This document shows, in pieces, positions 34,967 through 59,613 of a DNA stretch of 64,000 bases. Origin of the DNA: Vicinamibacteria bacterium (GTDB lineage: Bacteria > Acidobacteriota > Vicinamibacteria > Vicinamibacterales > CAVVIG01); NCBI GenBank assembly GCA_041485905.1, contig JBGPKK010000002.1, positions 4,484-68,483 of the forward strand, read 5' to 3'. Position 1 is the first letter of the stretch, and each line of letters starts with the position of its first letter. The notes beneath the pieces were generated by a model that searched no databases, was not told the origin of the DNA, and worked only from the letters and a program-made list of their open reading frames with translations. Both the position numbers and the translations under genes were made by a program.

Positions 34967-36250
34967 TTACCGCGGTTCCAGCCGGCTGACGAGCCGGCGC
35001 GGGACGTCGGCGACGATCGAAATCCGGCCGTCGCGGGTCTCGTGTTCGAGCACGCGGCCGTGGCGGTATACCTGCGCGATGCGCTCACGTTCGGCCGGCT
35101 CATCCGGGTCGAACGTCAGTGTGAGGCGGCGGACATCGAGGGCGAGGCGCGATGCGATCGTATCGATCAATTCATCGAGCCCCTCCCGCTGGAGCGCCGA
35201 GATGCACAGGGCGGCAGGATCCTGATCCTGGAGACGCCGGCGCTCGTCGAGCGTGATCGCGTCGCACTTGTTGTAGATCTCCAGCGTCGGCACCTCGTTC
35301 GCGCCGACCTCCTGCAGGACGCCTGTGACCGCCCGCACGCGGCGGTCGCGGTCCGCCGTCGCCGCGTCGATCACGTGCAACACCAGATCCGCCTCGGCGA
35401 CTTCCTCGAGAGTGGCGCGAAACGCCGCCACGAGCGCGTGCGGAAGCCGATCGATGAAGCCGACCGTATCGGACACGAGCAACTGCCGGTTGTCCGGCAG
35501 CCGCACCTGGCGCACCAGCGGATCGAGGGTGACGAACAGAGCGTTCGACGCCTCGGCGTGGGCTTTGGTCAGCGCGTTGAACAGCGTCGTCTTGCCTGCG
35601 TTTGTGTATCCGACCAGCGCCACTGTCGGCACTGACGCCTTGTGCCGCCGCTCGCGCAGCTGCGCGCGCCGCAGGCGGACATGCTCGATGTCGTCGCTGA
35701 CTGCATGGATGCGCGTGCGAATGCGGCGCCGATCCGTTTCCAGCTTCGTTTCGCCAGGACCTCGCGTGCCGATTCCGCCGCCCAGCCGGGACAACGCCGC
35801 GCCGGCCCCGACCAGACGCGGCAGCAGATACTTCAATTGCGCGAGCTCGACCTGCAGCTTTCCTTCTTTCGTGCGGGCCCGTTTCGCGAAGATATCGAGA
35901 ATCAGCTGCGTCCGGTCGATGATCTTCCGGTGCACTTCCTCTTCGATGTGGCGCAGCTGCGCAGGCGTGAGCTCGCTGTCGAAGATCACCACGTCGGCGT
36001 CGGTCTCCGCGCACGACGCCGCCAGCGTGACGATTTTACCGGCGCCGAGAAACGTCGACGGATCGGGCCTGGGCCGCTCCTGCAGGACCCTCAGCACGAC
36101 CGTCGCGCCCGCGGCGCCGGCCAGCCCCGCCAGCTCGTCGAGCGAACGCTCGGCATCGAGCCGCCGCGCCCGGCCGGCGATCAATCCGACAATCGCCGCA
36201 CGTTCGGTGCCCGCTACGCGGCGCGCAGGCATGCCTGGATCTCTTCCCAA
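34967..36250 (-). CDS. hflX: GTPase HflX
   Basis: 427 aa. HflX N-domain (LAQLKYLLPRL...GPGETKLETDRR) and G-domain GYTNAGKTTLFN / DTVGFI. Confidence 0.9.
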   Translation of the reverse strand: MGRDPGMPARRVAGTERAAIVGLIAGRARRLDAERSLDELAGLAGAAGATVVLRVLQERPRPDPSTFLGAGKIVTLAASCAETDADVVIFDSELTPAQLRHIEEEVHRKIIDRTQLILDIFAKRARTKEGKLQVELAQLKYLLPRLVGAGAALSRLGGGIGTRGPGETKLETDRRRIRTRIHAVSDDIEHVRLRRAQLRERRHKASVPTVALVGYTNAGKTTLFNALTKAHAEASNALFVTLDPLVRQVRLPDNRQLLVSDTVGFIDRLPHALVAAFRATLEEVAEADLVLHVIDAATADRDRRVRAVTGVLQEVGANEVPTLEIYNKCDAITLDERRRLQDQDPAALCISALQREGLDELIDTIASRLALDVRRLTLTFDPDEPAERERIAQVYRHGRVLEHETRDGRISIVADVPRRLVSRLEPR

Positions 36251-36867
36251 CCGATGGCGCCGGCGCGCACGAGCTGCGGCTCGTCAGTGGTCGTATCGAC
36301 GATGGTCGACGGCAGACCGCCGGCGGTCGGTCCCGCGTCGACGAGCACGTCGATTCGATCGCCAAGCGCACGCTCGACAGCGTCTGGGTTCTGCGTAGGC
36401 TCGTCGCCGCTCAGGTTCGCGCTGGTGGCGGTGAGCGGCGTGCCACAGGCGCGGCACAGCGCCCGAGCGACGGCGTGCGCCGGCACGCGGACACCGACTT
36501 TTCCGGTGCCTCCACTGACCGCGGTAACGAGCGTGGGCGGTGCGGCCATGAGCAACGTCAGCGGACCGGGCCAGAAACGCAAGGCCAGTCGGCGTGCCAT
36601 CAGCGGAAGCGCGCCAATCCGATCGACAACTTGCGCGACATCGGCGGCAATGAGCGGCAGCGCGCGCTCGACGCTTCGCCCCTTCACGGCAAGTACCCGC
36701 GCGACGGCATCTGTGAGAAACGGATCCACCGCCAGACCGTACAGCGTGTCTGTCGGCACGGCGACGACACCACCGTCGCGGATCGCTCGCACCGCTCGAT
36801 CGAGCGCCCGGTCATGCGGGCCCACGCCGTCGACCTTGATTCGATGCATGAATCGCTGATGATACAC
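36214..36867 (-). CDS. tsaC: L-threonylcarbamoyladenylate synthase (YrdC/TsaC family)
   Basis: 217 aa with GGVVAVPTDTLYGLAVDP and SANLSG motifs. An internal Met at 36849 is an alternative start. Confidence 0.85.
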   Translation of the reverse strand: MYHQRFMHRIKVDGVGPHDRALDRAVRAIRDGGVVAVPTDTLYGLAVDPFLTDAVARVLAVKGRSVERALPLIAADVAQVVDRIGALPLMARRLALRFWPGPLTLLMAAPPTLVTAVSGGTGKVGVRVPAHAVARALCRACGTPLTATSANLSGDEPTQNPDAVERALGDRIDVLVDAGPTAGGLPSTIVDTTTDEPQLVRAGAIGWEEIQACLRAA

Positions 36868-36878
36868 TCGCGTCGTTC

Positions 36879-37373
36879 ATGCTGACGCATTACTCGAGAG
36901 TGCTCCACGGGACGTGGATTGGTCAGGCACTCGGCGGAGGCATTCCCTGGCTTTGGCCCGCCTTCGGGGTCCTCCACTTCCATGGCATGGCGCTTCTGGT
37001 GGGATGCGTCGTCACGCTCGACTTGCGCATGCTCGGCGTCGGCAAAGGGCTCCCGCTCGGACCGATGCAGAAGCTTGTGCCCTGGGGAATTCTCGGGTTC
37101 GTGATCACGCTGATCACCGGCGTCGGGTTCTATGCCGGAAATCCGGAACAGTATCAAAGCGTCGCCTTTGCCGCAAAGATGGCGTTCATCGTGCTGGCGG
37201 GTCTGCACGCCATCCTGTTCTATGTGACCGGGCTCGCCGGCCGCGTCGATCGCGTCGCCGCCGGAGGGGATGCGCCGCTCGCCGCCAAACTGTTCGCCGG
37301 CACGTCGTTGTTCCTCTGGGTCGGGGTGGTGTACTGGGGACGGATGCTGCCGTTCTTCGGCAACGCATTCTGA
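36879..37373 (+). CDS. uncharacterised 4-TM membrane protein, H-x14-DLR[LM][LM]G family (paralogue P1)
   Basis: 164 aa with four hydrophobic helices. Shares H-x14-DLRMLG, a KM motif in TM3 and LW-x6-GRM in TM4 with the ORFs at 37377, 55333 and 55813. Confidence 0.7.
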   Translation: MLTHYSRVLHGTWIGQALGGGIPWLWPAFGVLHFHGMALLVGCVVTLDLRMLGVGKGLPLGPMQKLVPWGILGFVITLITGVGFYAGNPEQYQSVAFAAKMAFIVLAGLHAILFYVTGLAGRVDRVAAGGDAPLAAKLFAGTSLFLWVGVVYWGRMLPFFGNAF

Positions 37374-37376
37374 TCG

Positions 37377-37892
37377 TCAGCCACCGATCCTGTTGATAAG
37401 GCCGGGCACGCCGGACACGGCTCCGAGGTACGCGGTCAACCGGCCCGCGGTCATCGCGCCAAACCACAGCACCAGAGAGACGGCCGCCAGCAGTTTCCCG
37501 GGTCTCCGGATGACGTTGTTCGCGTTCGGATCGCGAAAGACGACACGCCGAATGAGGACCAGGTTCACGACCGCGAGCGCGGTCAGAATCATCTTGATGC
37601 CGAACACGGGATTGGTCACCTTCGTCGTCGCGTCCGCAGCGAGAAGGATCGCGCCCGAAATCCCACTGATCCAGAAGCCAGTCCAGATGATCGGGAAGTA
37701 TCGTTCGAGCGGCGGCACGGGCAGCTTGCCTGCAAACCCGAGCAACCGAAGATCGATCATCACGCTGATGCCCACGGCGGTCACGACGCCCACCGTGTGC
37801 ACGAGCAGGACGCCCGGGTAGGCCCAGAGCGAACTATCTTCACGCACCCATCTGGACAAGCCGGTCTGCTCGAGATATGCGAAAAAGTCCAT
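37377..37892 (-). CDS. uncharacterised 4-TM membrane protein, same family (paralogue P2)
   Basis: 171 aa with H-x14-DLRLLG, KM and LW-x6-GRL. Convergent with P1, with a 3-nt gap between the stops. Confidence 0.7.
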   Translation of the reverse strand: MDFFAYLEQTGLSRWVREDSSLWAYPGVLLVHTVGVVTAVGISVMIDLRLLGFAGKLPVPPLERYFPIIWTGFWISGISGAILLAADATTKVTNPVFGIKMILTALAVVNLVLIRRVVFRDPNANNVIRRPGKLLAAVSLVLWFGAMTAGRLTAYLGAVSGVPGLINRIGG

Positions 37893-37981: not shown

Positions 37982-38812
37982 ATGAAAGCAACGCCAACAA
38001 CCCCAACAACATCAACAGCATTCACAACCTTCGCGAGGACGCTCAGTGGTCCCGTCGCTGCGCTGGGAATCGTGTGCGCACTGACGTCAACCGCCTCGGC
38101 CCAGTGGGAGCCGTACCCGTGGAAGAACATGCCGCGCACCGCCGACGGCAAGGTCGATCTGAAGGCGCCCGCTCGGCGCCTGCCCGATGGCAAGGTGGAC
38201 CTCTCCGGCTTCTGGGTCCCGACTGTCGCGGTCAAGCATCTGCTCAATCTTGCGGCGGATCTGAAACCAGGAGAGGTGCCGCTGCAACCCTGGGCCGAGG
38301 CGGTGTACAAAGAACGCATCGAGACCAACGGCAAGGATCACCCCGGCGTGCGCTGCTGGCCGTCCGGCATTCCTGAAAAAGACAATATTCCCGATGGGTT
38401 GAAGCTGGTTCAGACGCCGGATCTCGTGCTGCTCCTGCACGAATCCCGCACCATCTACCGGCAGATCTTCACCGACGGACGGCCGCTGCCTCGGGATCCG
38501 CAGCCGACGTGGATGGGTTATTCGATCGGCAAGTGGGAGAACGACACGTTCGTCGTCCAGACCATCGGCCAGAATGGCAGGACCTGGCTCGACATGCGCG
38601 GGCTGCCCGGAACGGACGCGTTGAAGGTGACGGAGCGCTTCACACGTCCCACGATCGGGCACATGGACATCGACGTCACGATCGACGACCCGAAGGCCTA
38701 CATGAAGCCGTGGACCGTCAAGCTGTCCTGGAGCCTGCTGCCGGATACCGATCTGATCGAGAGCATCTGCGAAGAGAACAACAAGGACGTTCCCCACATG
38801 GTCGGAAAGTGA
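37982..38812 (+). CDS. secreted hypothetical protein
   Basis: ATG at 37982, preceded by GAGGAA. Thr/Pro-rich n-region, a signal peptide ending ASAQ, and a mature domain of about 230 aa in which I recognise no motif. Confidence 0.65.
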   Translation: MKATPTTPTTSTAFTTFARTLSGPVAALGIVCALTSTASAQWEPYPWKNMPRTADGKVDLKAPARRLPDGKVDLSGFWVPTVAVKHLLNLAADLKPGEVPLQPWAEAVYKERIETNGKDHPGVRCWPSGIPEKDNIPDGLKLVQTPDLVLLLHESRTIYRQIFTDGRPLPRDPQPTWMGYSIGKWENDTFVVQTIGQNGRTWLDMRGLPGTDALKVTERFTRPTIGHMDIDVTIDDPKAYMKPWTVKLSWSLLPDTDLIESICEENNKDVPHMVGK

Positions 38813-38828: not shown

Positions 38829-41543
38829 TCACTTCACCGGGACGCGCTGCTTTAGGTCTTCGAACCAGTTGAGCGTGACGTTGATCTGCTCGGCTGGAGC
38901 TTTGTCGGGCGCGGCCTGGGACTTGGGCACCATCACGACGAAGTATTTGCCGTCGGGCGTGATGTCGTAAGGTCGCGCGCCGGGCGCGCTGATTCCGCTG
39001 ATTGGTAAGAGTGTGGTCTTGCCGAACGCGAAACCCCGTTGGCTTTGGATCTCGACGGCCATGATTTGCCGCGCAGTGCCAGGGCTCAAGAAAAAGAGCT
39101 CTTTCCCATCCGGCGACCACAACGGATTGTTACCGCCGGTCGTCGTAATCTGATGCTTCTCACCCGTGGGCGGAAACGGCTGAACGTACACCTCGTTTCT
39201 GCCAGATTCATTCGAGTGATACGCGAGCCATCGCCCGTCGGGTGAAAGGCTCGCGTTATTCGCGGGGGCTTTGAGGACGAGCTTTGGTTTCTGATCTGCA
39301 CCGAGGGACAACATCGAGATGCCTTGACTCGTGCCGGTCCCGTTGGTGAGGATCAAGACTTTTCCATCAGGCGACCACGATTCCGGTTGCGGACGGAGCC
39401 CCTGTTCGGCCTTGGCGAGCCGCTCAGCCGACCCTCCATCCACGCGCTGCCAGAAGAGGCCCCAGTCGCCTTCGCGGTCGGAATTGAACACCACGCGCTG
39501 GCTGTCCCTGGTCCAAAGGGGAGACTCATTGTGGCCTTCGAAGGTCAACTTGTGAATCGGCGTCGTGTCGCTCAGGTCATATATCCAAACGATGCGGTCC
39601 TTGCCGTCGTCCGTATAAACCGTCAACTGCTTCCCCGTTGGAGAAATCCGCGGCTGTGAGTACGGTCCTGACGGGATGTTCAAAGGCTTCCGAACGCCGG
39701 AACGGTCGACCAGCGTGAGCGCCAGTTCATTCGTCGTTTGGCCTCCTGGGATGTAGGCCATTGAACCGTTGTTTGCAAAGGCAAACTGAGCGTCCGCGCC
39801 ACCGCCACCTCCGGGGCCCGCTCGCCTCACGCCTTCGATGATCGGGACGGGACCGCCCGTTTGCAGCTTCCTCACATCAAAGGGGACAGCGAGCACGGTC
39901 GTCCCGAGCGCGTAGACGATGTGCCCCGTTGGCACGTACCGGCCATCGCTTCCGCCTGAAATCACTACCTTGCGCTCACCCGTCTTCAATGACTGAACGA
40001 CGATCTGGGCCTTGTCCCAGTTCTCGCTGCCGCCAGCTGAACCGCCGGCCGACAGCGTGAACAGCAAGGCATCGCCGCCGGGCAGGAGTTGCGGACGATG
40101 GGCGGTCTCACCTTCTTTGAGCGTGATGAGGTTTTCCGGTTTACCGCCGTTCGCCGAGACGCGAAGAATGCCCTTCGTCTCACCCCAGTAGATGTAGTCA
40201 TCGGAATTCCAAACCGGGCCGTATCCACCCCTATTGATCTCAACGAGGTCGCAGATCGTTACGGCGGCTCCACCGGCGATCGCAATCTTTTTCACTTTGT
40301 TCTCGGACCGCGAGTTATATCCCACCCAGCGGCCGTCCGGGGAAAAGAACGGATTGGCGGCTTGCGACGTGCCCTGAATGGGCCGGGCGTCCATGTCGCG
40401 CATGCTCCGAAGGTAAAGCTGTCGATTGGCTTCATACACAATGTTTGCGCCGTCCGGCGAAATTGTGATGAGACGCCGTGCCCCTTGCGTGAACTGCTGA
40501 CCCTCGGGAAGCACGAAAGGAAATCGAGTGACGGCTGCCGGCGGCGACGGACGCGAGTTCATCACGGCCACGGTCGCGGCGACCGCAATCCCCGCGACCA
40601 GAACCGCCGTGATCGCGTACGGAACCGCGCGCCTCCACAGGGGCTGCCGTGGGGCTTCGCGAGCTGCATGGACCTTCAGACCGTGCGGGTCGGCCATGAT
40701 CGTCTCGAGCTCAACGCGCACGTCGGCGATCGCATGCCAGCGGTCCTTGCGGTTCTTGGCGAGGCAGCGCCGAATCAGCTCTTCCGTCTTCGGATGCAGG
40801 TTCGCCGGAATCGCCCGCCAGTCGGGGTCCCGCGCGACGATGGAGGCGATCACGTCGGTGACGGTCTCGCCCTGAAAGGTCTGGCGGCCCGTGAGCATTT
40901 CGTAGAGGACGCACGCGAACGAAAAGATGTCGCTGCGCTGATCGGTGGCATGTCCCCGCGCCTGCTCGGGCGACATGTAGCCCGCCGTGCCGAGAATCAT
41001 CCCGGCTTGAGTCGCCATGACGCTGAGCGTGGGCGAGTGCGTGTTCATGGAGCTCGCTTGGGGCGATGCCTCTTCAAGCGCCTTCGCCAAACCGAAATCG
41101 AGGACTTTGACTTTCCCCTCCGGCGTGATCTTCACGTTCGCCGGCTTCAGATCCCGATGAATAATTCCCTTCTCGTGCGCGGCCTCCAACGCCTCGGCTA
41201 TCTGATGCGCGATCTTCAATGCCCCTTCTGCAGGAATCGGCCCGCGCTGGATCTGCTCGGCGAGCGTGTCGCCCGGAACCAGCTCCATGATGAGGAGGTG
41301 CTGGCCGTCGACATGCTCCAAACCGTACAGCGCCGCGATGTTCGCGTGATTGAGTGATGCGAGCAGCTTCGCTTCGCGCTCGAACCGCGCGATTCGCTCG
41401 GGGTCCCGCGCGAACGCTTCCGGGAGCATCTTCACGGCGACACTGCGTCCGAGCCGTGTATCGCGCGCCTGATACACCTCGCCCATGCCGCCCGCGCCGA
41501 GTCGAGCCTCGATCTGGAAATGTGCGATCTGTTTTCCAATCAT
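38829..41543 (-). CDS. serine/threonine protein kinase with TM and C-terminal TolB-like WD40 beta-propeller repeats
   Basis: 904 aa. Kinase motifs GAGGMGEVY, VAVK, HRDLKPAN, DFG and SPEQ. One TM (AVPYAITAVLVAGIAVAATVAVM). Repeated SPDG+W/Y propeller blades. Confidence 0.9.
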   Translation of the reverse strand: MIGKQIAHFQIEARLGAGGMGEVYQARDTRLGRSVAVKMLPEAFARDPERIARFEREAKLLASLNHANIAALYGLEHVDGQHLLIMELVPGDTLAEQIQRGPIPAEGALKIAHQIAEALEAAHEKGIIHRDLKPANVKITPEGKVKVLDFGLAKALEEASPQASSMNTHSPTLSVMATQAGMILGTAGYMSPEQARGHATDQRSDIFSFACVLYEMLTGRQTFQGETVTDVIASIVARDPDWRAIPANLHPKTEELIRRCLAKNRKDRWHAIADVRVELETIMADPHGLKVHAAREAPRQPLWRRAVPYAITAVLVAGIAVAATVAVMNSRPSPPAAVTRFPFVLPEGQQFTQGARRLITISPDGANIVYEANRQLYLRSMRDMDARPIQGTSQAANPFFSPDGRWVGYNSRSENKVKKIAIAGGAAVTICDLVEINRGGYGPVWNSDDYIYWGETKGILRVSANGGKPENLITLKEGETAHRPQLLPGGDALLFTLSAGGSAGGSENWDKAQIVVQSLKTGERKVVISGGSDGRYVPTGHIVYALGTTVLAVPFDVRKLQTGGPVPIIEGVRRAGPGGGGGADAQFAFANNGSMAYIPGGQTTNELALTLVDRSGVRKPLNIPSGPYSQPRISPTGKQLTVYTDDGKDRIVWIYDLSDTTPIHKLTFEGHNESPLWTRDSQRVVFNSDREGDWGLFWQRVDGGSAERLAKAEQGLRPQPESWSPDGKVLILTNGTGTSQGISMLSLGADQKPKLVLKAPANNASLSPDGRWLAYHSNESGRNEVYVQPFPPTGEKHQITTTGGNNPLWSPDGKELFFLSPGTARQIMAVEIQSQRGFAFGKTTLLPISGISAPGARPYDITPDGKYFVVMVPKSQAAPDKAPAEQINVTLNWFEDLKQRVPVK

Positions 41544-41650
41544 CGCGGTCTTTGCGCGCGTATCTTAACAGCAGGAAGCGCACTGGGTCGAACGCCCGTG
41601 TGATTTATCTCAGACATCCGACTTTTGATCGTTGTCTTCGCGTCCCGACG

Positions 41651-41887
41651 ATGCTACCGTCGTCAACCGCTCGCGTGATCAAGATGGATGAGAAACTGCC
41701 CGAACGCGTTGACGACGTCGATTGGCGATTCGCCAGCCTGGAGGCGTTCTTCAAGGAGGAGCGGCGCCAGAACGAAGTTTTGGTCAGGGAAGATGGCATC
41801 GCGACCCGGCGTCACATGGACGTCGTCGCTGAAAGAATAACGGCAGAACTCAAAGTGACCATGGACAGGGTATTTCCGAAGGGCTGA
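41651..41887 (+). CDS. small hypothetical protein, short paralogue of the 42020 gene
   Basis: VDDVDWRFASLEAFFKEERRQNEVLVREDGIATRRHMDVVAERITAELKV parallels FDGVGQQFDRVREDAAATRRELLAFIKDEGVTTRRHFDVVAEAQKSEIKL. The start is uncertain (ATG 41651 or 41684). Confidence 0.4.
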   Translation: MLPSSTARVIKMDEKLPERVDDVDWRFASLEAFFKEERRQNEVLVREDGIATRRHMDVVAERITAELKVTMDRVFPKG

Positions 41888-42019
41888 CCACTCCAGATTC
41901 TGCTGCACCGAGACGTGCTGGCGGTAGCAGCGGTTGACACGTTCCGATGTGAGCCGGACGAAATTCCTTGGATTCTCACGCGGCACAACATGTGCTGGTA
42001 CAGACGCGGAGGATTGCCG

Positions 42020-42445
42020 ATGACTGACGAAGAACTGGCCGGACGATTTGACAACATTGACCAGCGCTTTGCAGCCGTAGACCAGCGCTTCGACGCGGTG
42101 GACCAGCGCTTCGACGCGGTGGACCGGCGCTTCGACGCGGTGGACCGGCGATTTGACGGCGTCGGCCAGCAATTCGACCGCGTTAGGGAGGACGCGGCAG
42201 CGACGCGGCGCGAACTTCTGGCGTTCATCAAGGACGAAGGCGTGACGACGCGGCGCCATTTCGACGTCGTTGCCGAGGCACAGAAGTCGGAGATTAAGCT
42301 GATTGCAGAGGGACACAAGGCTTTGCAGAGCGACATGACTGGCGTGAAGGGAAGGGTGGACCGCGTGGAGACGCGCCAGGACCGCCTCGAAGACCGACAA
42401 GGGGCCCTCGAGCATCGTCAACGAAAGCTGGATGGACGCGAGTAA
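42020..42445 (+). CDS. coiled-coil protein with tandem DQRFDAV heptads
   Basis: ATG at 42020 with GGAGGA 7 nt upstream. 141 aa: seven heptads, a conserved TTRRHFDVVAE core, and a C-terminal charged coiled-coil (RVDRVETRQDRLEDRQGALEHRQRKL). Confidence 0.6.
   Translation: MTDEELAGRFDNIDQRFAAVDQRFDAVDQRFDAVDRRFDAVDRRFDGVGQQFDRVREDAAATRRELLAFIKDEGVTTRRHFDVVAEAQKSEIKLIAEGHKALQSDMTGVKGRVDRVETRQDRLEDRQGALEHRQRKLDGRE
42041..42184 (+). repeat. in-frame 21-bp tandem repeat (7 units)
   Basis: GACCAGCGCTTCGACGCGGTG occurs twice exactly (42080-42121), then GACCGGCGCTTCGACGCGGTG. Flanking units are progressively diverged. Confidence 0.85.
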
Positions 42446-44230
42446 TCAACGCGATTCGAGGGCAAACACCCAGACCGCTCCGCCTTCCGGCACTGGCGGA
42501 TACTCGCCCGGAAAGAGCCCGTTGAGCGTCGCCTGATCCCCTGCCGAGTCCCCGCCCCAACCCGAGTGGACTGCGACATATTGTTTCCCGTCGACCAGGA
42601 ACGTGGTCGGCGGCGCCAGAATGCCCGACGTGGTCGGCCACTCCCACCGCAGCTTGCCCGTAGAGGCGTCGAACGCGTGAATCTTCCGATCGTTGGTCCC
42701 ACCGCTGAACACCAGTCCCCCGGCGGTGGCGAGCATCGACCCCCAGTTTGGGCCCTTGAAGGTGTGGGTCCACACTCGCTGGCCAGTGTCCACGTTCCAT
42801 GCCTGCACTTCACCGAAATGATCGGCGCCGGGGACCCTCGGCGTTGGGCCGCCCCCGAACGCGGTGCCCGTGAACCCCGCGCCCGCCCGGTATTCCACCA
42901 CTGCTGACCCGATCATCGACCCGCACAAGTTGTTATTGGCCGGGATATAGATCATCCGCGTCTGGGGGCTGAACGCGATCGGAGGCCAGTTCTTGCCGCC
43001 ATGAAGTGATGGACAGAATTCCGCACGCTTGCCCGTTCCTGGCTTGCGGGCCGGATCCACGTCGGGTCGCCCGGTCACGGGGTCGAGGCGCAGGAACACG
43101 TTCTGATTCACGTACGGCTTGCCTTCGACGAAACGGATCGGTCCGTTGTTGGTGCGCTCGAGGAACCAGAGGTACCCGTTACGGGCGACGTCGATCAACC
43201 CCTTGATCGTGCGTCCGTTGCGCCGGTAGTCGACGAGGATCGGTGGCGACACCTCGTCCCAGTCCCAGGATTCGTTCGGGCTGTATTGGAAGTGCCCTTT
43301 GATCTGGCCGGTCGCGACGTCAATCGCAATGGTCGACGCCACGTACAGATTGTCGCCCGGACGCTGATCGCCCATCCACGGGCCGCCATTGCCGGTGCCC
43401 CAGAACGCCAGATTGGTCTCTGGATCGTAATTCGCAGTGACCCATATCGGTGCGCCACCAGTCTTCCACTGGTCGCCGTTGGGCCACGTCTCGCTGCCGG
43501 ACTCTCCGGGCGCCGGCACCGTATAGGTTCGCCACTGTTCCTTGCCGGTCTCTGGATCGAGGGCTGCGACGAAGCCACGAATGCCGAACTCTCCACCGGA
43601 CGTGCCGACCATCAGCTTGCCGCCGGCTATGAGAGGCGCGAGCGAAATATAGTAGCCGGACTTGTTGTCCGCAACGGTGCTCGTCCAGACTTGTCGACCG
43701 GTCTTCGCATCAAGCGCCACGACTACGGCCTCGCCGCCGGCAAAATAGACTTTGTCGGCGTACAGTGCGACGCCGCGGCTGGTGTCGTGCGGCACCAACG
43801 CGCCCGCAGCCCGCGGTCTCCGGTAGCGCCAGAGCACATTGCCGGTCCGGGCGTCGATTGCGATCACCTGATTGTTGGGTGTCGAGACGAACATGACGCC
43901 GTTGTTGACGATAGGCGCCGACTCGTGGACTCTGGCTTCGCCGGTCGAGAACCCCCAGACCGGCCGCAGCCGCGCGACGTTTTGCGTCGTGATCTGATCC
44001 AACGGACTGAAGCCCCAGCCGTCATAGGTGCGGCGAATCATCAGCCAGTTGCCGGCCTCTGGGTTCTTGAGGCGCTCCGCGGTCACCGGTAGATAATTCT
44101 GGAGGATAGTCGGCACCGGCGTCGGCACTGGTGTCGGCGCCTGCCGGGCCAAGCCTGTCGCGACCGTTGCGATGAACCAGACGACGGCTACCGCGACTGC
44201 CGCGTCGACACTCCGGGCCAGATTCTTCAT
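42446..44230 (-). CDS. PQQ-dependent dehydrogenase, methanol/ethanol family (PQQ-1)
   Basis: 594 aa with a signal peptide. Eight-bladed propeller W-motifs. Active-site region SPNESWDWDEV (D-W-D at 43256-43264). No vicinal Cys-Cys. Confidence 0.9.
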   Translation of the reverse strand: MKNLARSVDAAVAVAVVWFIATVATGLARQAPTPVPTPVPTILQNYLPVTAERLKNPEAGNWLMIRRTYDGWGFSPLDQITTQNVARLRPVWGFSTGEARVHESAPIVNNGVMFVSTPNNQVIAIDARTGNVLWRYRRPRAAGALVPHDTSRGVALYADKVYFAGGEAVVVALDAKTGRQVWTSTVADNKSGYYISLAPLIAGGKLMVGTSGGEFGIRGFVAALDPETGKEQWRTYTVPAPGESGSETWPNGDQWKTGGAPIWVTANYDPETNLAFWGTGNGGPWMGDQRPGDNLYVASTIAIDVATGQIKGHFQYSPNESWDWDEVSPPILVDYRRNGRTIKGLIDVARNGYLWFLERTNNGPIRFVEGKPYVNQNVFLRLDPVTGRPDVDPARKPGTGKRAEFCPSLHGGKNWPPIAFSPQTRMIYIPANNNLCGSMIGSAVVEYRAGAGFTGTAFGGGPTPRVPGADHFGEVQAWNVDTGQRVWTHTFKGPNWGSMLATAGGLVFSGGTNDRKIHAFDASTGKLRWEWPTTSGILAPPTTFLVDGKQYVAVHSGWGGDSAGDQATLNGLFPGEYPPVPEGGAVWVFALESR

Positions 44231-44236
44231 TCTCCT

Positions 44237-46420
44237 TTATCGCTTGTCCGGGAGCGCGAACACGTACATCGCATTCCCGGTCGCCGGAGGATGCAGTTCA
44301 GGCGCGATTGTTGCCGGCACGAGCCGCGGGCTGCCGCCACCGTTTCCGCTGGTAATGCCGATGTATTGTTTCCCGTCGATACTGAATGTCACCGGGAACC
44401 CCTGCACGGAGGTGGCGAGCCGCGTTTCCCACAACACCGTGCCGGTCTTGACGTCGAATGCCCTGAACTTGCGATCGAGATCTCCCGCAAACACGACGCC
44501 GCCAGCCGTCGAGATCGCCGCGGTCATGAAGGGCGCCCGCTGTTCGTGCGACCACATTTCTTTCATGGTCCTCACGTCGAACGCAGCCAGCTTGCCGATG
44601 TTGCCGTCCGAGCCAGGCAATTCGAAGAAACGCCGGCCCGCTCCGCCCCCGCTCCCGCCGCCTTCCTTCTGCTCGACTCGCTGCGCGCTGATCTCGATGC
44701 AGCTCTGGCTGAGCGGAATGATGATCTGATTCGTTCCCGCGTGATGGCTCGACGCCGGCCAGTTGTGGCCGCCTTCCGTGCTCGGACAGCCCTGCAGCCA
44801 CTCCCCGAACCGCTGCTCCAGGATGTCCGAACGATAGGTAGGCCTGCCGGTCTGCGGATCGAACCGTTCCCACACGTTCTGAAACACGGTTTCCTTATGG
44901 CCAAGGTACTTGCCGGTCTTCCGATCGAGCTTCCACAGGATGCCGTCCTTCCCGACCGTGAATAGCAGGTTCTGGTTATCGTCATCGACGAGCAGGCGCT
45001 CGAACACGACGTCGAGATCCAGCGACTCCGCCGGCGCGTGCTGGAAGTGCCAGGCCAGCTTGCCGGTATCGACATCCAAGGCAAGCGTCGAGCTGGTGAA
45101 GAGCGCATCGTCTTTGATCGACATGCCGCGGCTGATCGGCATCCAGGGTTTCGCCTGCGCGGTGCCCCAGTACGTGAGATTCAGCACCGGATCGTAGCTG
45201 CCGGTAATCCACGACTCGCCGCCGGCGCGGAACAGATTCGTGAGCGGGCCCCAGGAGTCTCCGCCGAGCTCGCCTTGCTTGGCGATCGTGTAGAACCTCC
45301 ACTGCTCCTTGCCCGTCGCGGTGTCGTACGCGCTGATGAAGCATTTCTCTTCGCGATAGGTTGAGCACCCGCCAAGCCCCTGGATCAGCTTGCCCTTCGC
45401 CACGATCGGGCCGCTGCTGGTGCTGTAGTTGCCCTTCGTCCGATCGCCGATGGTGGTTTGCCACACGGTCTTGCCGGTCCTCGCATCGAGCGCCACCAGC
45501 CGCGCGTCGCTTGTCGCCGCAAAGACCTTGTCCTCGTAGATCGAGATCCCCCGCATCGCGGCGCCGTTGGCCTGCGTGCCGTAGCGGTTCTCCCAGATCA
45601 GATCGCCCGTGCGGCCGTCGATCGCCTGCATGACGTTGCCGGGGTTGTTGAGATAGATCACTCCGTTATGCACGAGCGGCGCAGGCTGATTCGCTCCGCC
45701 TTCGTTCATCGCCCAGACCCACTGCAGGCGCAGATCTTTGACGTTGTCCTTCGTGATCTGATTCAGCGTGCTGTAGTTCGACGCGTGGTAGTCGTGTCGA
45801 ATCATGAGCCAGTCGTTGGGGCTCGGGTTGCGCAGCATCGCGTCCGTGACCGGCAGATAATTCTTCACTTCGCCGGCGACCGTGATGGCCGCCACCGGCG
45901 CCGCCGCTCCGCGTCCACGGCCTTGCCCTCCGGCCGCCGCCGCGGGCGCAGCTCCGCGTCCCGGTGCCGCGCCCCGTTGTCCTGCGGCCGCCGCTGCCGC
46001 CGGAGCCTGGCCTGTCGCCATTGCATTGATCGCCACATCTGTCGCCGCCGTCAGTGGCTGATTGCCGGCGGGGGCGCCATTGGACTGAAGGATGAACGCG
46101 ATGATGTTGACGTAATTCTCCGCACTGAGTGCGCCCGGGCTCTGCGGAGGCATGGTCAGTTGCATGAATGAGAGCAGTTCGCGCGCCGAGCGCCGACCCC
46201 AGGCTTCCATGAACTCGGAGCCGGCAAGCGGAGCCGCGTCACCAGAGCCTTTGAGATCGGGCAGGTGGCAGCTGGCACACTGCGCTTGATAGGTCGTACC
46301 GCCTGCCGCAGCCTGCGCGGCGGTGTACCGGCCAGCGGCAGCCTGTTGGCCGGCCAGCATGAGGCCGCCCGCAGCGAGGGCAATCACGACCAGCACAAGT
46401 TGAGTTCTAAAGTCGCGCAT
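44237..46420 (-). CDS. N-terminal cytochrome c fused to a PQQ-dependent dehydrogenase (PQQ-2)
   Basis: ATG at 46420 ([19 protein letters not shown]). CASCH heme motif, Ala/Gly/Arg-rich linker, then a PQQ propeller with AESLDLDVV (D-L-D at 45011-45019). Confidence 0.85.
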
Positions 46421-46433
46421 ACAGTTGTGCCTC

Positions 46434-46868
46434 CTACCGCAGGAACCAGCCCCACAGATTTCCATCCGGGGCTTTCTCGCTTGAAATCTGAATATACAGG
46501 CGGCCCTTCTGAAGGCTCTGCACCTGTTCCGGAGTCAAATCGATCGAGCCGGCGAGCGTCCCGGTCATTCCCTTGGAAACCGTGATGTCGGCAACGGGTG
46601 CTCCGCGCACACCCTTCGTCAGACCGGAATGAAGACGGGCGGTGGTTGCCGCTGAGCGCAGCCCTTGGAACGTTCCGCTGATCGTGAGCTTCGTGCCGGC
46701 CAGCACGGCCGATGCAGCACCTGATCCCGCCACCGTGTCACGCATCCCACCATCCATCGGGATGGTGCTCAGCCGGGCTTTGTACCGTTCCTGATTCTGC
46801 GCGGCCGGCTGTGCGAACCAGACACAGACGACCGCGATCACGGCGATAGCAACAGATTGTGTTTTCAT
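46434..46868 (-). CDS. CHRD-domain-like secreted protein
   Basis: 144 aa with a signal peptide. The pattern [22 protein letters not shown]...ARLHSG...GVRGAPV...[18 protein letters not shown] fits the CHRD consensus as I remember it. Confidence 0.55.
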
Positions 46869-46915
46869 GGTTCACTCGCGTATGGGCTGCATTCTAATCC
46901 TATTCCGGCTTGCGG

Positions 46916-47443
46916 TCAGGGTCGTTTTGTCGTGATGCGAATCCGTTGGAGGGCGTCAGCGTCGGCGTCAAGCTCCTGCCCGCCGGGAGGGAACTTGTTG
47001 GCCTGCAGAATGAACGCCACGATATCGCGATAGCGCTGAGGGGACAAACTGTTGGGCCGGTCCGATGGCATGAGCGTTCGAATCCGTACGAACAGCTCGC
47101 CGATGGTCGCGTCGTCCCACTGAAACGAAAAACTCTCCTCCACAAGGCTCGGCGCGGTGCTGTCGCCGCGAAGGTCTTTGGCGTGACACGAGGCGCACAC
47201 GTCCATATACAGAACCCGGCCGCGCCCGGCCTGTTCTTCGGTGTAGACCCCATCCCACGCCGTGCGTGCCGTGCCCGGTTTGGCCTCTTGAGCGCGCGCG
47301 AGGGTGCCGAGGACGAGCCCGCTCGCCACCAAGGCGATCGCGCCGCAGACGAACGCTGATGTGGCGTAAGGCTTCAGCCTTGCGAGCCGGACGCGCTCGC
47401 AACACTGAAGTGTTGCGCCACACCTGGCGTTGAGCATTCTCAT
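46916..47443 (-). CDS. c-type cytochrome (mono-heme), paralogous to the N-domain of PQQ-2
   Basis: 175 aa. CASCH motif and a TLMP Met-ligand region. ATGA overlap with the PQQ-3 stop. TM/signal segment AFVCGAIALVASGLVLG. Confidence 0.8.
   Translation of the reverse strand: MRMLNARCGATLQCCERVRLARLKPYATSAFVCGAIALVASGLVLGTLARAQEAKPGTARTAWDGVYTEEQAGRGRVLYMDVCASCHAKDLRGDSTAPSLVEESFSFQWDDATIGELFVRIRTLMPSDRPNSLSPQRYRDIVAFILQANKFPPGGQELDADADALQRIRITTKRP
47368..47416. repeat. three consecutive hairpins inside the 5' end of the cytochrome c CDS
   Basis: AAGGCT-TC-AGCCTT (47368-81). GCGAGC...GCTCGC (47382-47400). GCAACAC-TGAA-GTGTTGC (47399-47416). Confidence 0.5.
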
Positions 47444-49227
47444 TGTGGCAGTGCGAACACGAGCAGCGCATTGCCGCTGTTGGGCCGGCGAATTTCTGGA
47501 GCCAATTCGGGCGGAATCAACGCCGACCAGCTCCCGCCGCCAATCCCCGCCGGCATGGCCACGTACTGTTTTCCCTTCGCCAGGTACGTGATCGGAAACC
47601 CCTGAGCGGACGTCGGCAGTCGTGTCTGCCAGAGGATCTTTCCTGTCGTCGCGTCGTACGCGTACATGTGGCGATCCCAGTCACCTCCGAAGACGAGACC
47701 GCCGGCAGTCGCGAGCGCGGCCGTGTTGGACGGCGAGGGCGTGCGATGACGCCACAAGATCTTTCCGGTTCTGACGTCCATGGCCAGGAATTCACCGAGG
47801 TTGCCCCCGGAATCCGGATGTTTGTAATCTCGACGCCGCACCGGACCCGTACCGCCTCTGCCGACGATCTTCTCGACCGGGCCAAAGGTGGCCTTCTCGC
47901 AGTTCAGGTTGAGCGGGATGTACAACGCATTCGTCTGGGGGCTGAAGGCCATCGCGCGCCAGCTCTTGAATCCGGCGGTGCTCGGACACATGTCGACCTC
48001 GGTACCAAGCTGCGGGATCTTGCCGGACCGATAGAAGACTTTGCCGGTCTGCGGATTCACTTCCAGGATGGTCTGATAGCCGAGATCGGTGGCACGGATG
48101 AATGTCCCGGTGGCTCGATCGAGCTGCCAGAGGATTCCGAGCTTGCCCATCTTGAAGAGTGACTTGCGCCCCCCGATGTCGATCAGGATGTTCTCGAACA
48201 CCTCGTCCATGTCCTGCGTCTCACCGGGCAGGTGCTGGTAGTACCATTTCATTTTTCCGGTGTCGGGATCGAGCGCGAGAGTCGAGTTCGTATACAGGGC
48301 GGCGCCGTCGGTGCCGCGGACAACTCTGGCCCACGGCTTGGCTTGCGCCGTGCCCCAGTAGACAAGGTTCGTTTCCGGATCGTAGCTGCCCGAAATCCAC
48401 GCGTCGCTGCCGGCGCGGAAGGCCAGCGGCAGGTCGCCCCACGAGTCGCCGCCCGGCTCACCCGGACGCGCGACGGTCGATGTGCGCCACAGCTCCTTCC
48501 CGGTCGCCGCGTCATGGCCGGTGATGAAGCAGACGTCCTCCTTGTAGCGGCTGCAGCCGGTGATCCCGGCGATCACTTTCCCGCGCACGACGATGGGACC
48601 GGAGGTGTATCCGTATCCCAACCTCGCATCCGCGACCGTGGTGTCCCACACGAGCTTCCCGGTCCTCGCGTCAACGGCCACAATGTGCGCGTCATTCGTC
48701 GTCCCGAAGATCTTGTCTCCGAAAATCGCGATGTTCCTTTGAATGCCTCTACCTTCGTCGCCGCCTCCGCCTGCGGTGGCGGGCCGCTGCGCAAGGCGTG
48801 GGATGGCGGACTGCTCTCCGCCACCGCCGCGCTGAGCGCTCCCCGGGGGCGTCGGTGGCGCGGCCGCCTCGGGCCGAAACTCCCAGAGCAGATCTCCGGT
48901 CGCGGCGTCCAGCGCCTGAATGACGCCGCGTGGGTTCGGCAGATACATGACGCCGTTATAGACGAGCGGTGTCGCCTCCTGTGCACCGGTATCGTCCATC
49001 GCCCACGACCACGCCAGCTGAAGCTGCTGGACGTTCTGTCGGCTGATTTGATCGAGTGGGCTGTAGCCCCACGCGTTGTCGGTGCGCCGCCAGTTCAGCC
49101 AATCACCAGCCGCGGGATTGCGCAGCATCGCCTCGGTGACCGGGCGAGAGTCTTTCACCTGCGCCACGAGCCAGAGGTTTCCCAACAGCACGACCAGCGC
49201 CATCGATGCAGCGAATCGCGGTCTCAT
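47440..49227 (-). CDS. PQQ-dependent dehydrogenase, methanol/ethanol family (PQQ-3)
   Basis: 595 aa with a signal peptide. Active-site region GETQDMDEV (D-M-D at 48205-48213). Gly/Pro-rich insertion near the N-terminus. No vicinal Cys-Cys. Confidence 0.9.
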   Translation of the reverse strand: MRPRFAASMALVVLLGNLWLVAQVKDSRPVTEAMLRNPAAGDWLNWRRTDNAWGYSPLDQISRQNVQQLQLAWSWAMDDTGAQEATPLVYNGVMYLPNPRGVIQALDAATGDLLWEFRPEAAAPPTPPGSAQRGGGGEQSAIPRLAQRPATAGGGGDEGRGIQRNIAIFGDKIFGTTNDAHIVAVDARTGKLVWDTTVADARLGYGYTSGPIVVRGKVIAGITGCSRYKEDVCFITGHDAATGKELWRTSTVARPGEPGGDSWGDLPLAFRAGSDAWISGSYDPETNLVYWGTAQAKPWARVVRGTDGAALYTNSTLALDPDTGKMKWYYQHLPGETQDMDEVFENILIDIGGRKSLFKMGKLGILWQLDRATGTFIRATDLGYQTILEVNPQTGKVFYRSGKIPQLGTEVDMCPSTAGFKSWRAMAFSPQTNALYIPLNLNCEKATFGPVEKIVGRGGTGPVRRRDYKHPDSGGNLGEFLAMDVRTGKILWRHRTPSPSNTAALATAGGLVFGGDWDRHMYAYDATTGKILWQTRLPTSAQGFPITYLAKGKQYVAMPAGIGGGSWSALIPPELAPEIRRPNSGNALLVFALPQ

Positions 49228-49250
49228 GGATTGCTCCTCATCACTTCTTG

Positions 49251-49277
49251 GTCCGGCTAAAGCCGGACACTACGTAC
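49251..49277. repeat. REP-like element: hairpin plus CACTACGTAC tail
   Basis: GTCCGGCT-AA-AGCCGGAC followed by ACTACGTAC. The PQQ-4 stop codon (CTA at 49270-72) lies inside the tail. Matches the copy at 51161-51187 at 24/27 positions in the same orientation. Confidence 0.7.
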
Positions 49278-51192: not shown

Positions 51193-51272
51193 GATGGGCC
51201 TTTCGACATCCAGGCGTCCCTTGGCGCCGCGCGGTCGATTGTGCGCTGATCCTAGCGCGCCGCCATCGGGAA

Positions 51273-51697
51273 TCAAGGAGAAATCGGGTGCCGCCGAATC
51301 TGGGCCAGCATCTCGAGAACCGCAGATGCGACGGCGTGCGGCCGGCTGTTCCCTATCAAATGGTCGCTCCCGGGAACCATGCGCCACGTGCCTCGCGACG
51401 AGCGACGGGCCAGACGTTGCTGCAAGAGGTTCCAATCCCCGCCCGATCGAGCAGCAGCCGCAAGTCCTCTGTGAGGAGTCCCGCCGTGATCTCGCCGGGC
51501 CCGGGGTCGCTCCACCCCGTGCCCATGCGATCGTAGGAGCACACGCGCGTCCGGGCACCGACCTCCGCGCGGGCCGCTTCAGAGCCGGCCGAGGTCCCAA
51601 ACCCGCTCGACACAAACACGACCGTGGGGTCGCCTTCGCCTATGCACAATAGGCGACATGGTCTCTGCTCTTTTTCTGGCACTGGAGCGCACTGCAA
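51273..51697 (-). pseudogene. alpha/beta-hydrolase remnant (internal deletion plus frameshift)
   Basis: One frame gives an N-terminal hydrolase-like segment GDPTVVFVSSGFG...RVCSYDRMGTGWSDP...LLLDRAGIG. Another frame gives a C-terminal-like segment MVPGSDHLIGNSRPHAVASAVLEML. The nucleophile-elbow region between them is missing. Confidence 0.5.
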
Positions 51698-51744
51698 GAG
51701 TAACCTTCGCGTACGGGTTTGGTACAGCGCCTTTCGAGGTCCAC

Positions 51745-54591: not shown

Positions 54592-54607
54592 GGTATTGGG
54601 AGGGTTT

Positions 54608-54763
54608 ATGCTTCACAAGACCGGCAAGATGACTGGCTTTCACATACTCGCGACGGACGGCGAAGCCGGCCATGTGGACGATTTCCTGGTCGACGAGAGC
54701 TGGGCGATCCGTGGCACCGCCGACATCGAACTGATTGAAACCCTGCCTCCGGTGATCATGTAG
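54608..54763 (+). CDS. PRC-barrel-like fragment (possibly a gene remnant)
   Basis: The 51-aa ORF MLHKTGKMTGFHILATDGEAGHVDDFLVDESWAIRGTADIELIETLPPVIM* is preceded by GGGAGGG. The segment GxxIxATDGExGHVxDFLVDxxxWAIR matches the PRC-barrel N-terminal half, and the rest is absent. Confidence 0.4.
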   Translation: MLHKTGKMTGFHILATDGEAGHVDDFLVDESWAIRGTADIELIETLPPVIM

Positions 54764-56965: not shown

Positions 56966-57107
56966 CTTCGCACCTCTATCTAAGACCTTGGCGAGCGGAA
57001 CATGCATCAAGCGTTCTTATGAAACGCGAAGGCCATACTACTCAGGAGAGGGAGAGCGCCGCAAGCCACCACGGTAGGGCACGGCTTTCAAGGGGTGCCG
57101 ATGCGGG

Positions 57108-59566: not shown

Positions 59567-59613
59567 GAAGAACTTCCCCACTTCCCTTGACTTCACTCTT
59601 GCCCTCTGCCCTT

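Follow-up and report, generated by a model that had tools for sequence, protein, structure and literature searches.

SdhC and SdhD are two small paralogous membrane subunits, each of which gives one axial His to an interfacial heme b beside a quinone site. CydA and CydB, which also bind heme, are built from two four-helix bundles. CopC begins with a histidine brace, and YcnJ-type proteins join it to CopD in one chain. HemJ, a b-type hemoprotein of the membrane, forms a stable dimer (PMC13564367), and PuuD joins a DUF989 domain, which has eight helices in an Nout-Cout arrangement and conserved cytosolic loops I-II and V-VI, to a periplasmic cytochrome c (PMC4562309). Here, we compare these systems with pairs of small membrane proteins of the Pfam family DUF6644 (PF20349), which comprises about 7,000 clusters at 50% identity. 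Our literature search found DUF6644 and the periplasmic family DUF6152 in no paper and DUF2214 in lists only; neither the A/B pairing of DUF6644 nor its partner genes are described in any paper that we found. We propose, at a probability of roughly 40%, that a DUF6644 pair is a heterodimeric, probably heme b-binding transmembrane electron-transfer module partnered with a periplasmic cytochrome.

The window, by which we mean the whole 64-kb stretch of Vicinamibacteria DNA that was analyzed, encodes four DUF6644 paralogues arranged as two pairs. P1 (36879-37373, plus strand) is an ORF of 164 aa and P2 (37377-37892, minus strand) is one of 171 aa. The two genes converge, as the first-pass annotation had reported: the TGA stop of P1 occupies 37371-37373 and is followed by tcg, and the P2 stop reads tca at 37377-37379 on the opposite strand, leaving 3 nt between the stops. 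Convergence holds for this lineage only, however; elsewhere, the P2-type gene precedes the P1-type gene on one strand, an order conserved in L013, L055-L074, and soil contigs. In the second pair, P4 (55813-56343, minus strand, 176 aa) is the first gene and P3 (55333-55809, minus strand, 158 aa as listed) is the second; they share strand and frame and are separated by 3 nt. Public gene calls are identical to P1, P2, and P4. P3 probably starts at the GTG at 55800, giving 155 aa, because AGGAG lies 9 nt 5′ of this codon and P3 orthologues are 154 to 155 aa long.

P1 to P4 find one another with pairwise phmmer E values of 1e-23 to 6e-10 (6e-10 to 1e-16 for P1 and P2 against P3 and P4), and they share the invariant residues, the length of ~155 to 175 aa, and the four transmembrane (TM) helices of DUF6644. 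P3 (77.9 bits, E = 1.3e-21) and P4 (36.1 bits, E = 9.2e-9) exceed the Pfam gathering score of 27 bits; P1 (21.6 bits, E = 2.7e-4) and P2 (13.4 bits, E = 0.087) fall below it. Because P1 and P2 match P3 and P4 by phmmer, score 152 bits each against an HMM that we built from 163 family domains, and contain all the invariant residues, we assign them to DUF6644 as divergent members that form their own subtypes. The A-type HMM scores P4 at 241 bits and P2, the A-like partner of P1, at 111.8 bits (71.9 bits against the B-type HMM), and P3, the B-type subunit, scores 226 bits against the B-type HMM. P1 has orthologues in L004, L013, and L097 and is a short form of its subunit type, which in relatives usually includes an extra N-terminal His-rich 4-TM domain (long forms in L108). 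Cluster mates of P4 are named “hypothetical protein,” and the clusters of P1 and P2 are unnamed. The earlier description of an uncharacterized 4-TM family stands, in that Pfam records no function for DUF6644.

Alignment of the four proteins reveals invariant H33, G42, D48, L49, R50, G53, P68, G73, G81, K100, and M101 and, in the C-terminal part, S143, L146, W147, G154, and R155. All four thus contain the motifs H-x14-DLR[LM][LM]G, KM, and LW-x6-GR noted at first reading, but across the family KM varies at its Met and GR at its Gly. Among 163 domains from 150 representatives at 50% identity, the His (157/157), Arg (159/160), Lys (158/159), and Asp (147/160) are nearly always present, as are the Trp (150/155) and the Arg of the GR motif (149/155); only about half of the domains keep the Met of KM (81 Met, 43 Leu, 19 Ile). 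The His lies exactly 14 residues ahead of the Asp in 134 of 136 DLRxxG instances, and both subunit types keep H-x14-D.R (81/82 A-type and 80/82 B-type domains). Within the window, P1 to P4 are the only ones among 766 six-frame ORFs to contain H-x14-D[LFVIM]R..G.

All 78 testable genome loci, which come from Acidobacteriota, Gemmatimonadota, and Acidimicrobiia, have another DUF6644 gene immediately downstream on the same strand. The 79 genome loci, which we gathered with a close alignment of P4-type proteins, sample the P4-type branch only; A/B pairing is also seen in the more distant loci L008, L092, L094, and L095. Natural single-chain A-B fusions exist, with the P4-type domain before the P3-type domain, as in the two halves of P0121. 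In P0199, A and B are fused to a C-terminal cytochrome c′ domain with CxxCH, and in P0185, a secreted DUF6152 domain is fused N terminally to DUF6644. The 78 loci, the P2/P1-type loci, and the tandem fusions support the earlier suggestion that pairing implies a heteromer. We infer that P2 with P1, and P4 with P3, may form A/B heterodimers.

Lys and Arg are enriched in loops 1-2 and 3-4, and we predict an N-out/C-out topology because the C-terminal cytochrome c fusion and the N-terminal secreted DUF6152 fusion both require such ends. The His, Lys, and Arg would then lie close to the periplasm, on the side of the cytochrome, and the DLR motif at the cytoplasmic end of TM1. An AlphaFold2 (AF2) model of P2 (pLDDT 89.2) has four long TM helices, with two short ones at the N terminus, and the model of P0121 is a confident eight-helix unit (pLDDT 84.8, pTM 0.80). 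When this fusion model was used as a Foldseek query, the best PDB matches were CydA and CydB, with TM-scores of 0.54 to 0.61 and a probability of 1.0 but weak E values (0.01 to 0.2). We rejected homology to bd oxidase as unsupported, since hhalign of DUF6644 against Escherichia coli CydA was not significant; bd subunits also differ in having nine helices and a Q-loop.

The single-domain P2 model retrieved nothing meaningful from the PDB and no bd match, and a PDB sequence search with P3 found no match. The uninformative single-domain search would suit a nonredox role, with the pair serving to anchor or dock the class II cytochrome, w311, or DUF6152 partners described below at the membrane, or to transport small molecules. 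An NCBIfam match to a “putative transporter” family, at an E value of only 0.022, points the same way, and many class II cytochrome partners have a lipobox or signal peptide and hence would act at the membrane surface. Yet a passive anchor would not need buried His, Asp, Arg, and Lys to be conserved almost without exception over ~7,000 clusters, and the cytochrome domain fusion suggests that electrons are exchanged directly. We regard a nonredox role as very improbable.

Conservation in DUF6644 peaks where TM1 ends on the cytoplasmic side and in loop 1-2, a pattern that also fits an integral-membrane enzyme like HemJ or PuuD. In such an enzyme, the 4+4-helix unit would catalyze oxidation or reduction of a substrate, lipophilic or cytoplasmic, at the DLR loop, PW, and S..W, and the electrons would cross to the periplasmic cytochrome c. 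HemJ belongs to the CopD-related set and is itself a membrane oxidoreductase, and PuuD, an experimentally supported urate oxidase (PMC4562309), offers a precedent: P0199 has the same domain logic, with eight TM helices, an Nout-Cout topology, conserved cytoplasmic loops following helices I and V, and a C-terminal periplasmic cytochrome c. PuuD differs in being a single polypeptide with a class I cytochrome c and in its linkage to purine catabolism. We rejected homology to PuuD after hhalign of a tandem DUF6644 profile against Agrobacterium fabrum PuuD gave an E value of 0.59 over 18 columns; the PuuD sequence came from the supplement of PMC4562309 and was confirmed as Urate_ox_N (PF06181; E = 1.2e-136). 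No metabolic pathway genes are consistently linked to the pairs, whose recurrent neighbors encode periplasmic proteins, and we have no substrate to propose. We consider an enzymatic role quite unlikely.

By sequence, DUF6644 is weakly linked to the DUF2214/CopD superfamily, which includes the heme b enzyme HemJ. Among 55 DUF6644 members, 26 cross-match DUF2214 (PF09980; best E = 2e-7), and those scored one by one reach 18.7 to 21.1 bits, below the 34.1-bit gathering score; four cross-match CopD (PF05425; best E = 0.002), and none matches PF03653 (HemJ/UPF0093). HemJ (PF03653) itself matches CopD above threshold. The link to CopD consists of the Pfam cross-matches only, as hhalign of DUF6644 against E. 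coli YebZ, a CopD family member, was not significant (E = 0.25 to 0.28). Against Synechocystis HemJ, hhalign gave, in its best alignment, an E value of 0.014 and a probability of 3%, and this alignment matches up the His of TM1 and the Lys of TM3; the Synechocystis sequence was validated as PF03653 (E = 1.2e-50). DUF6644 proteins resemble CopD, DUF2214, and HemJ in their small size, their multihelix inner-membrane build, and a conserved His near the start of TM1, but no direct sequence comparison with HemJ, YebZ, or any solved structure reached significance. Unlike HemJ, a homodimer also known as protoporphyrinogen dehydrogenase PgdH2, DUF6644 would have two different subunits; it also has a DLR..G motif, a dedicated cytochrome c partner, and no linkage to tetrapyrrole synthesis genes.

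Directly upstream of P4 lies a gene (56351-57010, minus strand) whose product we assign to the class II (four-helix-bundle) c-type cytochromes; its single C-terminal CxxCH is CSNCH at residue 191 of 219. As a single sequence, it matches Pfam Cytochrom_C_2 at an E value of 3.2e-4 and 22.1 bits, below the 26.5-bit threshold; a profile of 23 orthologues finds only cytochromes c′, c-556, and b562 in the PDB (best E = 7.6e-5). Class II partners have an invariant helix-1 Met and two extra invariant Cys residues. A gene for such a cytochrome is present ≤400 nt upstream of the pair in 68 of the 79 loci and absent from there in 11; no cytochrome gene adjoins the P1/P2 pair in the window.

The same-strand gene run that contains P4 and P3 includes a PQQ-dependent dehydrogenase of the methanol/ethanol family (57108-58814, minus strand; Pfam PQQ E = 4.3e-93; TIGR03075, 537.9 bits, above the cutoff), an arrangement also found in L004. 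The start of this gene is overlapped by the gene for a diheme c-type cytochrome (58811-59617, minus strand), which has two Pfam Cytochrom_C stretches (E = 1.1e-19) and a TIGR02603 heme-binding domain. On the other side, a small c-type cytochrome gene (54781-55329, plus strand; CNDCH; Pfam Cytochrom_C, 24.2 bits) converges on P3; a cytochrome gene in this position also occurs in L001 and L002 and in just one of the 79 genome loci. Elsewhere, pairs have as neighbors diheme cytochromes and a PQQ-cytochrome c dehydrogenase, alternative complex III, or a GMC oxidoreductase and a Gluconate_2-dh3 family protein with no adjacent cytochrome c gene. These neighborhoods, in which cytochrome c genes predominate and PQQ dehydrogenases recur, bear out the suggested linkage to cytochromes and PQQ enzymes. 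At L094, the pair adjoins YceI and a separate cytochrome b561; thus, the pair need not be a quinone-reactive cytochrome.

Two further periplasmic families accompany the pairs. Divergent from P2 in the window is the gene for w311 (37982-38812, plus strand), a 276-aa secreted protein of an unannotated family, whose start at 37982 agrees with the public gene call and for which searches of Pfam, NCBIfam, and the PDB, including a profile search, found no match. Homologues of w311 are present in 59 of the 79 loci (directly downstream of the pair in 23), and the P2/P1-type pairs of L102, L108, and L109 likewise have one downstream. DUF6152 genes occur in 42 of the 79 loci and, in soil contigs, are divergent from P2-type genes; the predicted mature N terminus of DUF6152, after an AxA cleavage site, is His-His, and an NPH motif is conserved.

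These DUF6152 genes are among the points in favor of the main rival to electron transfer, CopC/CopD-like copper handling. In that model, a metal ion brought by periplasmic DUF6152 would be taken up or handed on at the inner membrane by the DUF6644 pair, and the cytochrome c would give an electron, e.g., for reduction of Cu(II) to Cu(I). The His-His terminus resembles the histidine brace of CopC and, with the NPH motif, fits this model, as do the DUF6644 cross-matches to CopD and DUF2214. The DUF6152-DUF6644 fusion P0185 likewise recalls CopC-CopD fusion in YcnJ-type proteins, where an N-terminal-His periplasmic domain adjoins a CopD-like membrane domain, and L094 has a nearby HupE/UreJ-type metal permease and TonB receptors. 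DUF6152 need not be related to CopC, however, and the membrane residues of DUF6644 look unlike a metal path: those conserved on the periplasmic side are one His and the invariant Lys and Arg, whose positive charges would repel a cation, and the conserved Met/Cys motifs typical of Cu(I) paths are absent. The nonsignificant YebZ comparison also counts against copper handling, as does the predominance of cytochromes c among the neighbors; no cuproenzyme gene was recognized among the scanned neighbor genes, and the 64-kb window contains no DUF6152 gene. To our knowledge, the function of CopD itself has not been established biochemically. On this balance, we consider copper handling unlikely.

Under the electron-transfer model that we prefer, each subunit would be a four-helix TM bundle with both ends in the periplasm, and A and B would pack as a pseudosymmetric eight-helix unit. 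The unit would carry a redox cofactor, most likely a b-type heme whose ligands would be the invariant TM1 His residues of the two subunits, close to the periplasmic side; the invariant Lys at the start of TM3 and Arg at the end of TM4 would neutralize the heme propionates. The first-pass annotation had suggested cofactor or quinone binding from the invariant polar residues; we infer a cofactor site from the same residues, and the topology, the cytochrome c′ fusion, and the HemJ/CopD kinship now ground it better. SdhC/SdhD is the mechanistic template, by analogy only: the helix number differs, and no iron-sulfur or flavoprotein partner is present here. Electrons would pass between this unit and its dedicated class II c-type cytochrome in the periplasm, the product of the gene just upstream, and the unit may thereby link the membrane to periplasmic oxidation systems, namely, PQQ and GMC dehydrogenases, w311, and DUF6152 proteins. 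The membrane-side partner of the unit may be the quinone pool, reached through the conserved cytoplasmic-side cluster of D-L-R, P-W, and S..W. Acidobacteria are generally menaquinone organisms, so that electron flow from PQQ enzymes to quinone would be thermodynamically unfavorable, and the direction of flow is therefore uncertain. Two other candidate functions were dropped: PQQ or lanthanide transport, as PQQ enzymes work in the periplasm and carboxylates are not abundant among the conserved residues, and a dedicated cytochrome c maturation factor, as there are no WWD-type or Cys motifs.

A more specific form of the proposal, which we hold only tentatively and find somewhat doubtful, is that DUF6644 A/B is a previously unrecognized heterodimeric membrane b-type cytochrome, distantly related to HemJ/CopD. 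It would belong to an undescribed five-gene periplasm-to-membrane redox module (cytochrome-A-B-w311-DUF6152, with a Met/His class II cytochrome c) serving the large PQQ dehydrogenase repertoires of Vicinamibacteria, Gemmatimonadota, and Acidimicrobiia.

Soil Acidobacteriota and Gemmatimonadota have many periplasmic PQQ and flavin dehydrogenases, and the route of electrons from these enzymes into the respiratory chain is poorly understood. Judged from their genes, DUF6644 pairs may be a new two-subunit membrane electron-transfer module. With ~7,000 clusters and a cytochrome that is either co-encoded (68 of 79 loci) or fused, they are a concrete candidate for the missing membrane link. If this is true, w311 and DUF6152, two unannotated periplasmic families, would gain a functional context, and the CopD/HemJ superfamily, for which heme b in HemJ is so far the sole biochemical fact, would gain a second member with a defined redox role.

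Four open reading frames (ORFs) in the window (G+C content, 64.6%) encode paralogues of one membrane protein family: P1 (36879-37373, plus strand, 164 aa), P2 (37377-37892, minus strand, 171 aa), P3 (55333-55809, minus strand, 158 aa as listed), and P4 (55813-56343, minus strand, 176 aa). Exactly 3 bases separate the stops of P1 and P2, and P4 and P3 run in the same direction and frame with 3 nt between them. The proteins share 25 to 30% identity with P1 and have 18 invariant columns in common, including H33, D48-L49-R50, G53, K100-M101, S143, L146-W147, and G154-R155; phmmer E values between pairs range from 1e-23 to 6e-10, and among 766 six-frame ORFs of the window only these four contain H-x14-D.R..G. 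Thus, the ORFs, the convergent stops of P1 and P2, and the shared motif reported in the first-pass annotation were all recovered. Public gene calls contain identical P1, P2, and P4 products; the cluster mates of P4 are called “hypothetical protein,” and the P1 and P2 clusters are nameless. The true start of P3 is probably at 55800, because AGGAG precedes a GTG there and P3 orthologues are 154 to 155 aa long. The listed starts of P1 and the divergent Sua5/TsaC gene (36214-36867) are 11 nt apart (36867-36879), with almost no promoter space, and the P1 orthologue in L004, a related locus, is 8 residues shorter; the true start of P1, Sua5/TsaC, or both may lie further inside the gene.

All four proteins match one Pfam family, DUF6644 (PF20349), P3 and P4 above the 27-bit threshold (77.9 and 36.1 bits) and P1 and P2 below it (21.6 and 13.4 bits). 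NCBIfam yielded no family for P1 to P4, a PDB sequence search yielded no relative, and no paper in the literature searched mentions DUF6644. The family, described as uncharacterised from the sequence, is catalogued yet unstudied, with P1 and P2 as sub-threshold, divergent members. A profile of P1 to P4 matched 7,078 clusters at E ≤ 1e-3, or 3,340 under the stricter E ≤ 1e-10, among 1.84 billion representatives. In 163 domains of the best 150 representatives, the motif is nearly absolute, with conservation of the His (157/157), Arg (159/160), Lys (158/159), Asp (147/160), Trp (150/155), and the Arg of GR (149/155); 134 of 136 motif instances show a 14-residue His-to-Asp spacing. Two positions of the four-protein motif vary across the family: the Met of KM is kept in about half of the domains, and B-type subunits, the products of the second gene of a pair, usually have Ala in place of the Gly of GR. 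A passive anchor or transporter is very unlikely, as it would hardly explain why thousands of clusters keep charged residues that are both buried and invariant. When 55 diverse members were scanned singly, 52 matched DUF6644, 26 matched DUF2214 (best E = 2e-7), and 4 matched CopD (best E = 0.002), which appears to place DUF6644 at the edge of a CopD-like set. P1 to P4 may be CopD/HemJ-like membrane proteins; none was identified as a member of HemJ, CopD, PuuD, or bd oxidase.

A search with the P4-type alignment against one genome per species identified 79 loci in Acidobacteriota (mostly Vicinamibacterales), Gemmatimonadota (Longimicrobiales), and Acidimicrobiia. A second DUF6644 gene lies downstream on the same strand within 36 to 244 nt in 78 of these; the contig of the 79th ends just past the first gene. 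The first and second genes fall into two lineages, A and B; by HMM score, P4 is A-type (241 versus 101 bits), P3 is B-type (226 versus 103 bits), P2 is A-like (112 versus 72 bits), and P1 is intermediate. Co-directional pairs of a P2-type gene followed by a P1-type gene are present in L013, L055, L057, L063, L070, and L074 and in ten soil-metagenome contigs, and pairing extends to the more distant L008, L092, L094, and L095. Three homologues (P0121, P0122, and P0123) carry two DUF6644 domains in one natural chain; in P0121, a P4-type half (E = 2.4e-29) precedes a P3-type half (E = 6.6e-27), matching the gene order P4 then P3. These observations uphold the suggestion that the genes occur as adjacent pairs.

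In most P2/P1-type loci, the P1-type protein is ∼320 aa long (L055, L057, L063, L070, L074, and L098 to L112; e.g., L108 4731-5696, plus strand) and begins with a His-rich membrane domain of four helices (HxHLLLNHxP ... EAH ... GGxIRHxE) that has no Pfam match and is missing from the window P1. The window, L004, and L097 were the only places with a short, inverted P1 beside Sua5. Since P4-P3-P2-P1-Sua5-HflX are contiguous in L004, we conclude that both window pairs derive from one ancestral cluster, here split by ∼17 kb. The insert (38829-54591), which L004 lacks, encodes a Ser/Thr kinase bearing PD40 repeats, an M16 peptidase, a small cytochrome c, and four PQQ dehydrogenases (one with an N-terminal cytochrome c domain, one of 781 aa). 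A short ORF (54551-54760, plus strand) between the M16 peptidase gene and the convergent cytochrome c gene is similar to the PRC-barrel protein encoded after the DUF6644 pair in L002 and L003 (phmmer E = 4e-14); this ORF could be either a small gene or a remnant.

The same-strand run ending in P4-P3 encodes two tannases, a dihaem cytochrome c, a PQQ dehydrogenase (TIGR03075), and a protein of 219 aa that has a single CxxCH, in its C-terminal part (56351-57010, minus strand). In the PDB, a profile of 23 orthologues of the CxxCH protein matched only class II cytochromes (c', c-556, and b562; best E = 7.6e-5). In their alignment, A9, the Met in helix 1 is invariant, suggesting low-spin Met/His ligation like that of c-556 and b562; two additional Cys are also invariant and may form a disulphide. 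Many copies have a lipobox, and Gemmatimonadota copies have a lipoprotein signal. In 68 of the 79 loci, the gene lies upstream of the pair at a distance of no more than 400 nt. PQQ dehydrogenases also recur near the pairs, and the linkage to cytochromes and PQQ enzymes for which neighbourhood statistics had been proposed does exist. The dedicated partner of the pair is a c-type cytochrome, which is often fused to it. Other contexts include alternative complex III, two dihaem cytochromes with a PQQ-cytochrome c dehydrogenase, YceI with cytochrome b561, and, where no cytochrome c gene adjoins the pair, a GMC oxidoreductase plus a Gluconate_2-dh3 family protein. The window PQQ dehydrogenase at 57108-58814 (minus strand) also reaches 488 bits with the NCBIfam model TIGR04528 (“acido-empty-quinoprotein group A”), short of its cutoff of 650.

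AF2 modeling of P0121 from a checked two-block alignment gave eight long helices (pLDDT 84.8, pTM 0.80), with the two bundles predicted to pack as one unit; the best PDB matches, cytochrome bd CydA and CydB and an alternative complex III membrane subunit, were weak (TM-score, 0.54 to 0.61; E, 0.01 to 0.4). P2 alone was modeled with four long transmembrane (TM) helices plus two short ones at the N terminus (pLDDT 89.2), without a meaningful PDB match. Mean Lys+Arg counts are higher in loops 1-2 and 3-4 (2.5 and 2.0) than in the N-terminal region and loop 2-3 (0.7 and 0.9); the domains fused in P0199 (C-terminal cytochrome c' with CxxCH) and P0185 (N-terminal secreted DUF6152) must be periplasmic. 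Together, these features give each DUF6644 domain an N-out/C-out topology, which puts the invariant His (early TM1), Lys (TM3 start), and Arg (TM4 end) toward the periplasm. D-L-R..G marks the cytoplasmic end of TM1, and P-W (TM2 start) and S..W (early TM4) are on that side too. Such a conserved cytoplasmic loop, and the precedent of PuuD (PMC4562309), would suit a HemJ- or PuuD-like membrane enzyme, but PuuD shows no homology to DUF6644 and no substrate pathway is linked to the pair, making this reading improbable.

Two secreted proteins recur beside the pairs. The first, which we call w311 (37982-38812, plus strand, 276 aa), is divergent from P2 and has an N-terminal PRTxDGKPDL(N/S)GxW motif and two conserved Cys; neither the sequence nor its profile matched Pfam, NCBIfam, or the PDB. 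Homologues (e.g., L048 11007-12068; L108 6713-7531 and 7573-8529) are present in 59 of the 79 loci, often right after the pair, and also behind P2/P1-type pairs; tandem w311 arrays adjoin PQQ dehydrogenases. The second, DUF6152 (e.g., L108 3622-4017, minus strand; L048 12153-12611, plus strand; L008 8556-9041, minus strand), occurs in 42 of the 79 loci and ends a five-gene cytochrome-A-B-w311-DUF6152 operon in 23; in soil contigs it is oriented divergently to P2-type genes, and none was found in the window. Its predicted mature N terminus is His-His (AxA cleavage), and NPH is conserved. This N terminus, the operon, and the DUF6644 fusion in P0185 are reminiscent of CopC-CopD. Copper handling by such a system, to which the fusion and the adjacency of the genes point, is nevertheless rather unlikely given the cationic Lys and Arg beside the His and the absence of Met or Cys motifs.

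We tentatively favor, at a probability of roughly 40%, an A/B heterodimer that would bind a redox cofactor, most likely one heme b held by the two TM1 histidines, and carry electrons between the membrane and the class II cytochrome of the periplasm; the cytoplasmic-side DLR cluster would be a putative quinone site or structural. This reading draws on the obligate pairing or fusion of DUF6644 genes with the His kept in both copies, the periplasmic-side His, Lys, and Arg, the cytochrome partner, and the distant link of DUF6644 to the superfamily of HemJ, which matches CopD above threshold. HemJ is a dimeric membrane b-type haemoprotein (PMC13564367), and in the best, non-significant hhalign alignment to it, the TM1 His and TM3 Lys are in register. 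The obligate A/B pairing, the class II cytochrome partner, and the recurrent w311 and DUF6152 genes appear to have no description in the literature searched. For soil phyla that have many periplasmic dehydrogenases, the DUF6644 pair is a specific candidate for a membrane redox link, and one that can be tested.
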